DNA of 64,000 bases, taken from assembly GCA_963836185.1 (NCBI GenBank), contig CAWIIQ010000002.1, forward strand, positions 64,001-128,000, written 5' to 3'. This DNA is from Candidatus Krumholzibacteriia bacterium (GTDB lineage Bacteria > Krumholzibacteriota > Krumholzibacteriia > Krumholzibacteriales > Krumholzibacteriaceae). The stretch's first letter is position 1, and every line of letters begins with the position of its first letter. Of this stretch, positions 31,640 through 47,092 are shown piece after piece. Both the position numbers and the translations under genes were made by a program. The notes beneath the pieces were generated by a model. The model was not told the DNA's origin. It did not search any database and saw only the letters and a list, made by a program, of their open reading frames with translations.

Positions 31640-31871
31640 GCGGGCCCTTTCTGTTGAAGAGACGGCCGGCCTGCCGAATGCGGGAGGGCCGGCTGAAATC
31701 CATATATGGCGGATGATCACCGCCGTGGTCACAGGATAATACAGGCCGGGAGCCGTATTTTCAAGCCGGAGATGGATGCCGGCGCTGTAAAGTGGACTTG
31801 TACAACAGGGCACCGGTCGATATATTTCCCGGGTGACTTTAATAGAGGAAGATGCCGGAAAGGAGCCGCGG

Positions 31872-32408
31872 ATGGCTTTCAAAAGGATAACGCTGCTGAT
31901 GATAACTGCCGTGACGCTCGCGGGTTGCGGCGGCGGTGATATCGAGGCAGTCGACAAGACTGGAAAGATCGTGGAGGAAAATACCTGGATGTCCTTCGAT
32001 AACGGGATGGCGCTCGCCAGGGATATGGGCAAGCCGGTGGTCATCGATTTCTATACATCGTGGTGCCGGTGGTGCAAGGTGATGGACAAGGAAACGTTCA
32101 AGGATGAAGAGGTGGCCTCGTACCTCAGCGCGCACTTTATCTCTATAAAACTCAACGCTGAGCAGACGAACACAAAGATCCAGTACGGAGGGCGCACGTA
32201 CACTCCCGCCGCCCTCGCCAGGGCGTTCAAGCTGAGGGGCTACCCCTCGGTAGCCTATCTCGACGAGAAGGGCGCGCTGATCTTCGTCGATACAGGGTTC
32301 AAGAAGGCCGGCCAGTTCATGGTCAACCTCAAGTATGTAAAAAGCGGGTGCTACAGCAAGGGTGTGTCTATCGAGGAGTTCAGGAGGCGCGGAGGGAAAT
32401 GCGACTGA
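31872..32408 (+). CDS. Thioredoxin-fold lipoprotein (SoxW/DUF255-like, CRWC)
   Basis: Lipobox LAGC, DFYTSWCRWCKVM, GYP cis-Pro motif. Confidence 0.9.
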   Translation: MAFKRITLLMITAVTLAGCGGGDIEAVDKTGKIVEENTWMSFDNGMALARDMGKPVVIDFYTSWCRWCKVMDKETFKDEEVASYLSAHFISIKLNAEQTNTKIQYGGRTYTPAALARAFKLRGYPSVAYLDEKGALIFVDTGFKKAGQFMVNLKYVKSGCYSKGVSIEEFRRRGGKCD

Positions 32409-38387: not shown

Positions 38388-38414
38388 ATCCGGACTTATC
38401 ATGAAAGGAGCAGC

Positions 38415-39659
38415 ATGAAAAAGATCATTTCGCTAGCGGCGGCCATGGCATTAACGGTGGCCGTCATCTTCGTGGCCGGTATCCTGCCGTCCTGTTCAGG
38501 CGAAAAGGATACTGGCGGCACGTCGGACCTCTATCTCCTCGAGGAGCTGGAAACTGCCCGCTCGGTCGAGGATCCGGACAAGAGGATCGAGAGGCTCGAG
38601 ATCTTCGCGGCCAACAATGAGGGTCACCCATACCGGTCCATGGCGCTCGAGAGCATCATGGAGACGATGGCTGTCGATAAGGGTGACGTCGAGGGAGCGC
38701 TCGCTTTTTTCGATGTGTTGATGGATGAAGAGACTGACCCTGCGATCCGCGGGAAGCTTCTTTTCGCGAAGTTCGAATTCTTCTGGGAATCTGATTCGCT
38801 GCAGTCGGTCGCTCTCGCGAAGGATGTGATCGACAGCGAAGAGACTGATTTCAGGCTCCTTATGTACATGGCCTATTACCTGATGGGAGCGGAGGGACAG
38901 GAGGAGGTCGCCGACGCCGTATTCTCGCGGCTCATCGAGGTGACGGACGATGAGCACAGGAAGAATCATGCCCGCACTATCTATGCCGAGTTCCTCGAGG
39001 CCGGGGAGCGCGGGGAGGAAGCGGCAGCGGTGCTCGAACTTGCCTCGTCATATACCTTCGCCAACGCTCCCCTGGGGCGCATGCTCTGGGATGAAGGAAA
39101 CCGCGAAGAGGCTCTGGAGAAATATATATCCCTGTCGGCCGGGGCTCCCGGATACCGGAAATATATCAAGCTGGACAGCCTATACGCGATAGTCCATCCG
39201 GAACCGAACGATCTCGAATCGAGGATTGCGGAGCTCAGGATAATCGATGGCCCGCAGATTCCGGACAGGGAGTTTGTCGATATCCGGGGGATGCAGCATT
39301 CGATCTCCGGCTACCGCGGGACGAAGATGGTGATAACAGCCTTCAGCCCCACCTGACCTCCCTGTATTGCGGAGTTGCCGCAAATGGAGGAACTGAAGAA
39401 GGAAGAAGAGACCCTCGGGTTCAAGCTGCTTCTGATAGACGGGAAGGGGATGCTCGGAAAGACCCGCGGTATCATGGATGACAAGGGAGTCACGATACCG
39501 GTGCTTCTTGACAGCCATCAGTATTCACGGGAGGTACTCGGTACGATGTATACCCCGACTACCTACGTGATCGACGCGGCGGGAATGGTGAGGTGCCGGC
39601 TCGTCGGGCATTCGGATGATTTCAACGGGATAATCGCCGATGTACTGAGCCGGATATAG
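38415..39659 (+). CDS. Predicted selenoprotein: lipoprotein with helical/TPR-like region and C-terminal TlpA-like redoxin, UGA (39354-39356) read as Sec in a UPPC motif
   Basis: The two ORFs are in frame: AFSPT-TGA-PPCIAELPQM...YTPTTYVID. Lipobox-like LPSC. SECIS-like hairpin downstream of the UGA. Confidence 0.88.
39367..39383 (+). promoter_or_regulatory. Candidate bacterial SECIS element
   Basis: TTGCGG-AGTTG-CCGCAA hairpin beginning at the 11th nt after the UGA. Confidence 0.7.
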
Positions 39660-39671
39660 CCGATTCCGGAC

Positions 39672-39794
39672 AAAAAAAAGGCGGGGACCGTGCCTGAAAA
39701 AAGGGGTGGGGTTCTCGTCACGTTGTCTGTCGAAGTTGCTTCGCAGTCCAGACGAGAACCCCGGAGGGGTGTTCCCCGAACAATTGGGTCTCGC
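39672..39794 (-). ncRNA. Candidate ~120-nt small RNA: one long hairpin with a C-rich central bubble
   Basis: Promoter directly upstream. 5' GCGAGACC pairs with 3' GGTCCCCGC; 12-bp perfect inner stem (39708-39719 / 39751-39762); U8 tract at the 3' end. Confidence 0.6.
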
Positions 39795-39800
39795 ATCTAC

Positions 39801-39828
39801 AAGATAACAAAGAATCGTTATAAGTCAA
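39801..39828 (-). promoter_or_regulatory. Promoter of the candidate sRNA
   Basis: TTGACT (39828-39823), 16 nt, extended -10 TG-T-TATCTT (hexamer 39806-39801). Confidence 0.65.
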
Positions 39829-44941: not shown

Positions 44942-46801
44942 CTAAATGTACGGCTCAAGTTCGATCGTTGCACTCTTTTTCTCGTTGTCTCTCCTGAACT
45001 CGACCTCGACCTTTTCTCCACTTTCACCATGGAAGAGCGAAAGGATGCGGTCGATGTTCTCATCCGTGGCCACGGCGCCGCCTACAGTTTCGAGGATATC
45101 TCCGGGCCGAATGTCGGCCCTGTCGGCCGGTGAGTCCGGTATCACCAGCCTCACGATGAGAGCGCCTTTGTCATCAGCGGAGATCTGCATACCTGAACGG
45201 TCCGGCCAGAATGGATCGCCGGAGGAATCGTTCGGCAGCAGGACGGCAAGCTGGTTCCCATAGTCGAGCCAGGCAGTGAATCTTTCAAGGATGTCGTTTC
45301 CTATCACCCCGGCGATCCCCTCGAAAGCGCCGATTCCCTTGCCGCCGAGAGGCACGGTGAATACCGGACCAGAGAGCTCCGACTCCCCGATCTTTATCGA
45401 TTTGAACCGCGCGACTGCTGCACGGTCCTCGCCTCCCGCTCCTGCCACTACGATATCGACTGTCTTCCTGTCATCCAGAAGGCCGTTAGCGTCTACGAAC
45501 GGTTTCTGCAGGACGGATGAATTCGCGCCTGTGTCTATCAGGAACGTACCCTCGTGCTGCCCGTCCAGAATGGCCGCGGCTGAGAATATCTTGTGCATGA
45601 GGGGAGCCTGTATCGTGTCACCACCTTCGATGGAAGGTTGTGAGCCGGGCCTGAAAAATGTGATAAGTCTTTTTTCGTAGTCGATCCTCGTTACGAATCT
45701 GCTCAGGAAATCGTATCCGAGTACTCCGCCCGCCTCGATGCCCGAGTAGCTTCCTGTCAGGGCGGATATCGGGTAGATGATCGCGGTCTGTTCCTCGAAC
45801 TCGATGCCGCCGGTACTGAATCCAGGAAGCCGCGTCATGCTGAAATCGGTCATCCCGCCGGCTCCGGCGCCGGGAATCTGCCCGTCGGACTCGAAGCCCA
45901 TCGCTTCGGCCAGATCCTCATCGATCATCGTCATTCCAGCGCCTGAATCGAGAATGAAAAGCCGCTCAGGTCCGCCATCCTTTATCCGTACAGGCAGGTA
46001 TATGTGCCTGTTTACGTAGAAGAACTCGATCGTCGCTGAGTCGCCTTCCGAGACGAACCTGAAATCGTCCGCGAGGTCGCCGGGAGGGAGGAAGACAGCG
46101 GGGTCGATCACCGTGTTGATCTCCACGTCGAGCGTTCTGACCTCGAGCGCCTGGCCGATAGCCTTCTGTGAAGTCACGCTTCTGAACGGTATCATTATCC
46201 CGCTGCTCTCGCGGTAATCATGGAACCTCTGCTCGACTGTGCCGGTCATCGATTCGATCTCGATCATCATGATGAGGTATGAAGAGGGATCGATGAAGAT
46301 CCTGCAGGGGTAACCTTCTTCCGGGGTGAGAGCCAGCACATGGTATTCAGACGAATCGACGGCGGCAGTTCCCGCATATTCGAGATCGAATCCATCGATG
46401 CGCGATACATAACCGAAGCTTTCAAGAAGACAGGTCGTGATCTGGTTCTTTCGCGAATCCTCATCGCGCCTTATCTGAAGCATGCCGTTGGGTCCGACCA
46501 TCCAGCTCCGCTCACCGTCGAATCCCTGTCTGATCGTAAATAGCCCGAGCTTCGCTTCCGTCAGGGAGAGGCACGGCATCAGTATCACCGACCTGATACT
46601 GCCCTTCATGCCGGTAGATATCATCTCTACCTCTCCGGTCGATACGACAGAGCGGATCCCGTCAAGCGCATCCCGTCCCCCCAGAGCTTCAACGTGTCTC
46701 TCCAGGAGGACATCCAGGGTGATCTCTTCGGTTCCGGCAGGCGATGCCAGGACTGCCGCCAGAAGGGCGATCGTCACTGAAAGACAGGTGGTTCTACCCA
46801 T
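44942..46801 (-). CDS. Secreted aspartyl protease (two retropepsin-like domains) with C-terminal PDZ
   Basis: Signal peptide, ILDSGA, LIDTGA, GVLGYDFL/GVIGNDIL, SPADRADIRPGD. Confidence 0.88.
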   Translation of the reverse strand: MGRTTCLSVTIALLAAVLASPAGTEEITLDVLLERHVEALGGRDALDGIRSVVSTGEVEMISTGMKGSIRSVILMPCLSLTEAKLGLFTIRQGFDGERSWMVGPNGMLQIRRDEDSRKNQITTCLLESFGYVSRIDGFDLEYAGTAAVDSSEYHVLALTPEEGYPCRIFIDPSSYLIMMIEIESMTGTVEQRFHDYRESSGIMIPFRSVTSQKAIGQALEVRTLDVEINTVIDPAVFLPPGDLADDFRFVSEGDSATIEFFYVNRHIYLPVRIKDGGPERLFILDSGAGMTMIDEDLAEAMGFESDGQIPGAGAGGMTDFSMTRLPGFSTGGIEFEEQTAIIYPISALTGSYSGIEAGGVLGYDFLSRFVTRIDYEKRLITFFRPGSQPSIEGGDTIQAPLMHKIFSAAAILDGQHEGTFLIDTGANSSVLQKPFVDANGLLDDRKTVDIVVAGAGGEDRAAVARFKSIKIGESELSGPVFTVPLGGKGIGAFEGIAGVIGNDILERFTAWLDYGNQLAVLLPNDSSGDPFWPDRSGMQISADDKGALIVRLVIPDSPADRADIRPGDILETVGGAVATDENIDRILSLFHGESGEKVEVEFRRDNEKKSATIELEPYI

Positions 46802-47092
46802 TTTTTCTCCCGCCGGAAGAGGCCTGTTCACTTCGGAGACTGTCTCTGCGCGGCATGAACTGCCAGCCTGAGGCGATCATACCGCTTTTCGGCGATGTTA
46901 TCACAGCGTGTGGCGGTCCGAGAACCGGTTTTGAATGAAAACCCCTATTTCTCGAAACCGGCTCGCCGGGGGAATAATCATTGCAGATTACAAGGGTGGA
47001 CCTTAAAGGACACCTTTGGACAGATCAAAACAAGGTTCTTCCTGAAGCGCTTGAAGGCGAGGCCGGGAATGGGGCCCCGGTCCTCGCCGCGC

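Follow-up and report, generated by a model that had tools for sequence, protein, structure and literature searches.

The stretch at positions 38415-39659 of the window (the whole 64,000 nucleotides analysed here, from a Candidatus Krumholzibacteriia bacterium) raises the question of whether two adjoining open reading frames are two genes or one and, if they are one, which residue is read at the TGA codon between them and what the product does. A Shine-Dalgarno-like AAGGAG (38405-38410, + strand) is seen directly 4 nt ahead of the ATG at 38415, which opens 313 codons; these are followed by TGA at 39354-39356 (+ strand), 100 more codons, and TAG at 39657-39659. Read-through of the TGA gives a product of 414 amino acids containing AFSPT-U314-PPC317-IAELP and MYTPTTYVID. 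The first-pass annotation had placed the apparent stop of the 313-residue frame at the first cysteine position of a TlpA-like motif and had proposed that the downstream frame, lying in frame, completes a thioredoxin fold. Both points hold: the TGA is codon 314, the best solved relative (3kcm) carries an aligned cysteine in WATW-C-PPC-REEIP at the place of UPPC, and the Pfam families PF00578 (46.5 bits) and PF08534 (40.8 bits) both exceed their cut-offs across the TGA (residues 281-398). A scan for promoters and terminators around the gene gave results at chance level. It is very likely that the two apparent genes are a single coding sequence (38415-39659, + strand), whose frame is kept in homologues, and that its product is a single protein of 414 residues, for which export and lipid anchoring are predicted.

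Comparison with relatives showed how firmly the TGA is kept. The codon at the predicted Sec site, the first position of a UxxC motif, is TGA in all 30 mapped loci (38-82% identity to the window protein), and three residues further on Cys317 (39363-39365, + strand), the second position of the motif, is invariant in 30 of 30 loci, encoded by TGT in 17 and by TGC in 13. The gene's own stop codon varies among the 28 complete loci (14 TGA, 8 TAA, 6 TAG), and it lies exactly 100 codons from the in-frame TGA in 25 of these. Since the own stop is itself TGA in half of them, TGA is also an ordinary stop codon in this lineage. Values of dN/dS were 0.08-0.27 after the UGA versus 0.12-0.34 before it (15 pairs, 6 genomes); purifying selection on the downstream part is the same as on the upstream part. 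Among the matches listed for four sequencing runs, the two records spanning 39354-39356 showed no differing letter there, an observation to which we attach no weight. A sequencing error or a recent pseudogene might be imagined in an assembly where tuf, selB, dsbD and a TlpA paralogue are frameshifted, but the TGA recurs in dozens of independently assembled genomes and the part behind it is under purifying selection; this conservation refutes the idea, to which we give practically no weight.

The protein was matched in 30 of 41 genomes. A search of 208 genomes of the phylum matched it in 47 of the 52 genomes of the order, with one in-frame TGA in 46 of 46 spanning matches, the TGA position itself being mapped only for a subset of loci that overlaps those 46 genomes. 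In a family of another order, 7 of 12 genomes encode a distant homologue that is about 20% identical, is laid out alike and carries an FW[H/F]PT-U-x-x-C motif; all seven of these distant TPR homologues have TGA at the equivalent site. Locus L054 also has TGA at the Sec site. Four further distant TPR proteins (P0091, P0132, P0178, P0182) end exactly at NFWSPT, NFWHPT or NFMSPT; judging from where they end, they are probably additional members cut at the Sec codon.

The same truncation pervades the databases. Among 35 close database proteins, 33 have lengths of 229-321 amino acids and reach no more than 76% coverage of the query, and in a profile search the best 17 matches all stop at profile position 283-284, just ahead of the Sec column, while orphan C-terminal halves turn up as separate entries. 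The suspicion that standard pipelines split this protein was thus well founded, as databases hold it cut at the UGA, and the annotation error is systematic: for a gene that 47 of the order's 52 genomes possess, most entries read "TPR/hypothetical protein" and are devoid of the catalytic domain.

Exchange between Cys and UGA at the site, suggested in the first-pass annotation as a check, does occur, both forms being present among homologues. The other two of the 35 close proteins, P0002 (a cluster of 5 members) and P0003, are full-length at 408 amino acids and read SPT-C-PPC. They group with the window protein inside the Sec clade (support 100/100), which suggests a recent Sec-to-Cys change; these two Cys forms are known here from their protein sequences. 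A DNA pattern with a Cys codon found 0 matches among metagenome contigs, and the two loci fetched with the Cys-form protein P0040 both have TGA. A genome scan found a Cys codon at one of the 33 loci covering the site, two of the 35 scanned loci lying outside it; this single case (L087:5842-6486) is a spirochaete (Leptonemataceae) redoxin of 214 amino acids with YSPT-C-PPCIAELP, which has neither the TPR region nor the hairpin. More distant proteins of about 400 amino acids that combine TPR and TlpA regions, one of them named from Acidobacteriota, carry WGxW-C-x-x-C and are stored full-length. Eight Cys-type TlpA proteins encoded in other families of the class differ in their N-terminal domain and are not orthologues; none of the eight has a contiguous stem of at least 6 pairs at the place of the hairpin, but in folding energy they overlap with the Sec forms.

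The hairpin lies directly behind the TGA. The claim had been that a 6-bp hairpin with a G-containing loop starts at the 11th nucleotide after the UGA, and a SECIS-like upper stem-loop, UUGCGG-AGUUG-CCGCAA, is indeed found there (39367-39383, + strand), its loop following a 16-nt spacing and having G as its second nucleotide. Folding also predicts a lower stem, weaker than the upper one, at 39357-39361/39386-39390 (+ strand). Folding 47 nt from the UGA onwards gives -15.3 kcal/mol (z = -3.26), a value reached by 1 of 200 shuffles; shorter segments give -8.0 kcal/mol (25 nt) and -7.3 kcal/mol (the 17-nt stem-loop by itself). The bSECIS model, as given in the parts of PMC13188914 available to us, has a loop of 3-9 nt, an upper stem of 4-16 bp, G in the first two loop positions, a spacing of 16-37 nt and a minimum free energy of -7.5 or lower. 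The present element agrees with this model with its 5-nt loop, 6 bp, 16-nt spacing and the energy obtained with the lower stem, that of the bare hairpin lying just short of the limit. Hairpins of such a type follow 29 of the 116,182 TGA triplets in the genome, a count in which this site matches by construction as the pattern was built from the family, and genome-wide hairpin scans were too noisy for listing the selenoproteome.

Inside the hairpin, Ala319 is encoded by GCG, Glu320 by GAG and Pro322 by CCG at every one of 30 loci; elsewhere in the gene, codon identity reaches at least 0.9 in none of 86 other well-conserved four- or sixfold columns and at least 0.95 in one of 44 twofold columns. 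Across 47 distinct sequences, 97.9% of 282 cells are paired, and 18 two-sided changes fall at three of the six pairs, some of which replace the encoded residue (Gln by Arg or Leu; Ala by Val through the C-G to U-A swap); the set of 30 sequences had one pair with two-sided changes, in four cells. For paired cells, two-sided cells and the covariation score, 0 of 500 shuffles were as high and all slid controls were lower. Two of the five measures did not rise above the shuffles: 85 of 500 shuffles reached the observed number of pairs showing a two-sided change, and 109 of 500 reached that of further pair types. Because the sequences are related rather than independent, these shuffle counts are not probabilities. 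In one distant member (L099), the stem stands in a different register. The hairpin is under RNA-level constraint, and it may be the RNA loop rather than catalysis that keeps Glu320 unchanged.

These observations bear on the simplest alternative, in which the TGA is a true stop and the locus encodes a TPR lipoprotein with a separate small C-terminal fragment, or with negligible read-through. Database annotation takes this form, an ATG is present at codon 324, and selB is broken in the assembly. Termination would, however, cut the thioredoxin fold at its catalytic position, and it would leave a site that is always TGA in genes whose real stop varies, next to uninterrupted Cys homologues and a hairpin constrained as RNA; we consider it very improbable.

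The Sec machinery was sought in the window's genome, which is 92.5% complete in 6 contigs. The selA, selB, selC and selD genes had been named as the check, and three of them, selA, selC and selD, were found, while selB is present but frameshifted in the assembly. Both selA (502.6 bits) and selD (356.6 bits) exceed their cut-offs, the latter with its own in-frame TGA in ASCSG-U-ASK. The tRNA-Sec(tca) scores 71.2 bits and has a G discriminator and a long variable arm; it is the sole tca tRNA among 47, and tRNA-Trp has cca. The selB gene (C1:47922-49806) is present end to end in several frames, its pieces ending with the C-terminal SelB winged helix, and does not exceed the cut-off as one piece. 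Among 41 genomes, selA was matched in all 41 (40 over the cut-off), tRNA-Sec was found in 38, and selB exceeded its cut-off in 37, including 6 of 6 genomes of the same genus. Because tuf (C1:71107-71980), dsbD (C1:780455-782309) and the TlpA paralogue (C3:168958-169963) are frameshifted too, we read the selB frameshift as an assembly indel, and the four cases together point to indels that were left uncorrected; caution is due wherever a gene looks broken in this genome. A second predicted selenoprotein is a peroxiredoxin (C1:692973-693368, locus L089) with TGA at the catalytic position, in DFTFV-U-ATE, and a hairpin with a GGUC loop at -19.2 kcal/mol. One genome of the same genus (G003) has a second, weaker tRNA-Sec match (C5:178264-178357, 53.8 bits).

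The tRNA set also bears on whether the UGA is read as another residue, through genome-wide recoding to Trp or Gly or as Cys by a tRNA-Cys with a UCA anticodon. Such insertion of Cys at UGA exists elsewhere, and homologues here do have Cys at this position. On the other hand, TGA ends the same gene where relatives use TAA or TAG, the one tca tRNA is of the Sec type, tRNA-Trp is ordinary, and selA and selD are intact, so that a reading of this kind seems even harder to defend than termination. We consider it very likely, from the sequence evidence, that selenocysteine is the residue inserted at position 314. By the pattern of conservation and covariation and by the machinery present, SelB with Sec-tRNA would bind the hairpin 11-27 nt past the UGA and Sec would enter at 314.

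The predicted protein has three parts. A predicted lipoprotein signal peptide (residues 1-26) precedes a putatively lipidated Cys27 in the context LPS-C (38415-38495, + strand), as judged by a sequence heuristic, and this N-terminal segment is the sole hydrophobic segment of the protein. By the same heuristic, a cysteine stands at the lipobox offset behind a hydrophobic stretch in all 28 loci with an N-terminus, preceded by G, A or S in 26 and by C in 2; none of these 28 loci has a twin-Arg motif. An all-helical TPR-like region follows (residues ~38-275; 38526-39239, + strand), and residues ~277-414 (39243-39656, + strand) form a TlpA/ResA-type thioredoxin-fold domain by Pfam and structure matches. 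The structure model (mean pLDDT 92.9, pTM 0.88) shows 15 helices and then the thioredoxin fold.

For the helical region, Pfam TPR_7 scores 14.3 bits against a cut-off of 27.9 in the window protein, and TPR families exceed their cut-offs in the distant homologues P0088, P0091, P0132 and L100; modelled as a lone domain it reaches a pLDDT of 66.8, and Foldseek returned weak TPR and 14-3-3 matches, none at E<=0.001. The closest structures to the redoxin domain are ResA, Etrx2 and DsbE-like proteins (Z ~20, rmsd 1.8-2.0 A, TM to target 0.83-0.88), with Etrx2 the top match in VIA-align, tied with ResA. Thr380-Pro381 (39552-39557, + strand), invariant in 28 of 28 loci, forms the predicted cis-Pro loop. 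The role of this loop is a known feature of the thioredoxin fold. No NCBIfam model exceeded its cut-off for the window protein or six homologues. The earlier proposal of a 414-residue, membrane-anchored periplasmic seleno-oxidoreductase is supported, and those of its suggested checks that were run all favoured it.

We regard it as probable that the product is a DsbD-fed extracytoplasmic disulfide reductase of the ResA/TlpA type with a TPR client-binding arm. The protein would be exported by the general secretory pathway through its signal peptide and then lipidated, a step that the heuristic makes highly probable. Judging from the fold, the selenolate of Sec314 would attack a client disulfide, Cys317 would resolve the intermediate, and the N-terminal domain of DsbD, a protein encoded in this genome, would re-reduce the pair; taken jointly, attack and re-reduction are likely, if a little less firmly so than the overall assignment. 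The TPR-like helices may hold the client or a partner, and apocytochromes c and mis-oxidised envelope proteins are candidate clients. The DsbD in this genome has its N-terminal, membrane and thioredoxin parts, and ResB, ResC and several multiheme cytochrome ORFs are also encoded. Across the 52 genomes of the order, DsbD was found in 49, ResB in 51 and CcsA in 51; being nearly universal, DsbD, ResB and ResC fit the proposed role but do not discriminate for it. A predicted complex between nDsbD of the window's genome and the redoxin domain of the Cys homologue P0002 scored a weak 0.35 versus 0.00 for the best control, with runs agreeing in at least 83% of contacts and a partner pLDDT of 83; of 78 solved complexes 51 reach the mark used, as do 2 of 108 mismatched pairs, and passes as low as this one are wrong more often than right unless the pair is likely beforehand. 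A similar complex, nDsbD-CcmG, has been solved (1z5y).

The selenoprotein could instead be an extracytoplasmic peroxidase, or an electron carrier for the repair of Met-sulfoxide or metal sites (Etrx2-, TlpA/Sco- or Prx-like), rather than a general disulfide reductase. Selenocysteine is suited to peroxide chemistry, PF00578 is common to peroxiredoxins, and Etrx2 shares the top structural match. Against this, the PxxxTxxC/U peroxiredoxin motif is absent from the alignment, the UxxC motif, E-x-P helix and cis-Pro loop are of the TlpA/ResA type, and the genome encodes separate peroxiredoxins, one with its own TGA; we therefore think such a role improbable.

A more specific version of the disulfide reductase reading is that of a selenium-dependent ResA with a built-in TPR chaperone, which would hold apocytochrome c and reduce its CxxCH disulfide for the ResB/ResC synthase. 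If true, selenium supply would in this lineage bear directly on the maturation of multiheme cytochromes c and on the DsbD electron relay. The near-universal DsbD, ResB and ResC, the lack of a resA beside resBC and the multiheme cytochrome ORFs speak for it. Gene linkage is missing, however: no redoxin was found among the ORFs scanned beside resB/resC on contig C4, and resB and resC were not among the scanned neighbours of the gene. Moreover, the five genomes of the order without the gene (61-97% complete) keep a Cys-type helical-domain TlpA homologue, the match in one of them being a contig-edge fragment. Because the gene does not lie beside resBC and these five genomes have the Cys-type TlpA, a dedicated ResA role is weakened, and we rate it as unlikely. 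The Cys-type paralogue could do the ResA job. In the window's genome it lies at C3:168958-169963 (L115:5959-6964) and has a signal peptide, a helical domain and a WATWCAPC TlpA domain, making it a candidate housekeeping ResA. Two further lipoprotein-like TlpA-fold proteins are encoded at C1:1055220-1055501 and C2:20510-20767, one lacking both active-site cysteines (YLATWNEDSK) and the other reading AATWCSVC.

The neighbourhood points to no client. The gene stands at the end of a co-oriented GT4-DegT-GT run that is kept across the order. A functional link to the upstream glycosyltransferase and DegT genes was considered and rejected: they are kept at 28-31 of 41 loci, but unrelated flanking genes are kept at 21-25 of 41, and at the 7 distant loci these genes are absent, the loci of the distant family having unrelated neighbours. 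Other features were observed nearby. A thioredoxin-like lipoprotein (window 31833-32408; FYTSWCRWC; DUF255/Thioredoxin_7) is encoded 6 kb upstream and lies near the gene in 5 of 32 loci, and the minus strand at 44942-46831 encodes a protein predicted to be exported, in which two aspartyl-protease domains are combined with a PDZ domain. Between the gene and a convergent rhomboid gene lies a conserved non-coding stretch (39660-39810), of which 39697-39796 is matched by contigs of other organisms.

Selenoproteins of the UxxC TlpA/AhpC-TSA type and exported selenoproteins have already been described. In the parts of PMC13188914 available to us, UxxC selenoproteins of cd02966, PF00578 and PF08534 are catalogued; the window protein resembles these entries in combining PF00578 and PF08534, in having Sec first in UxxC and in its in-ORF SECIS, and differs, by description only, in its lipoprotein signal, its ~240 residues of TPR-like helices and its [WF][SH]PT-U motif. 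The available text of that paper contains none of the terms "TPR", "lipoprotein", "periplasm" and "Krumholz". The same Prx-like classes and some fusions appear in the accessible portions of PMC9312934 and PMC2398784, the latter containing neither "TPR" nor "tetratricopeptide" there. Term searches of the accessible text of PMC13326102 (BSepDB) and PMC12013277 (deep-Sep) gave 0 matches, and "Krumholzibacter" is absent from the part of the BSepDB supplement examined; the family may already be listed in BSepDB. In our literature search, no paper turned up that describes a TlpA selenoprotein fused to TPRs, or any selenoproteins of the phylum Krumholzibacteriota. The TPR-lipoprotein form with the [WF][SH]PT-U motif, not found in the catalogue parts examined, is a real, modest variant.

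Exported selenoproteins are represented by SaoB, SaoC and SaoX, in a study attributed to Haft and co-workers. The available part of that report (bioRxiv 10.1101/2022.07.06.499078) describes Sec behind signal or lipoprotein signal peptides in proteins missed by annotation, as in the present case. Unlike the window protein, SaoB, SaoC and SaoX are described there as ABC-transporter binding proteins with CU motifs, part of a nine-gene system and of unrelated fold. A parallel of another kind is offered by the CcmI and NrfG TPR chaperones of cytochrome c maturation, which, in the part of PMC3884852 available to us, likewise have TPRs in the periplasm with which an unfolded client could be held, homology not being implied; unlike the window protein, they belong to system I and have no TlpA-domain fusion.

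The closest functional models are Bacillus subtilis ResA together with CcmG/DsbE, TlpA and pneumococcal Etrx2, which the window protein resembles in its fold, its cis-Pro loop and its predicted membrane anchoring, with DsbD and ResB/ResC present in the genome. In ResA, E80 presumably has a functional role. The spacing of U314, C317 and E320 equals that of C74, C77 and E80 in ResA, by the residue numbers in PDB titles, though here the codon of the Glu coincides with the SECIS loop. Unlike ResA and TlpA, which have W-x-x-W-C, the protein has Sec for the first Cys and Thr for the preceding Trp, and unlike ResA relatives it has a large TPR-like arm and does not adjoin resB/resC. The NCBIfam ResA model (NF002854) scores 43.1 bits, below its cut-off of 170, with homologues at 50-75 bits. 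The ResA-like WAxxUGC (seleno)protein model NF041054 likewise describes a ResA-like fold with Sec in the active-site loop, but the present motif is UxxC (FSPT-U-PPC) and not UGC, and the score is 40.3 bits against a cut-off of 300. Neither the recoding mechanism nor the redox chemistry is new. Our findings add an exported two-domain member, with an unusually clean covarying SECIS, to the thioredoxin-fold selenoproteins, and its Sec form and close Cys forms make a ready pair with which to study the contribution of selenium to an extracytoplasmic relay of the DsbD type.
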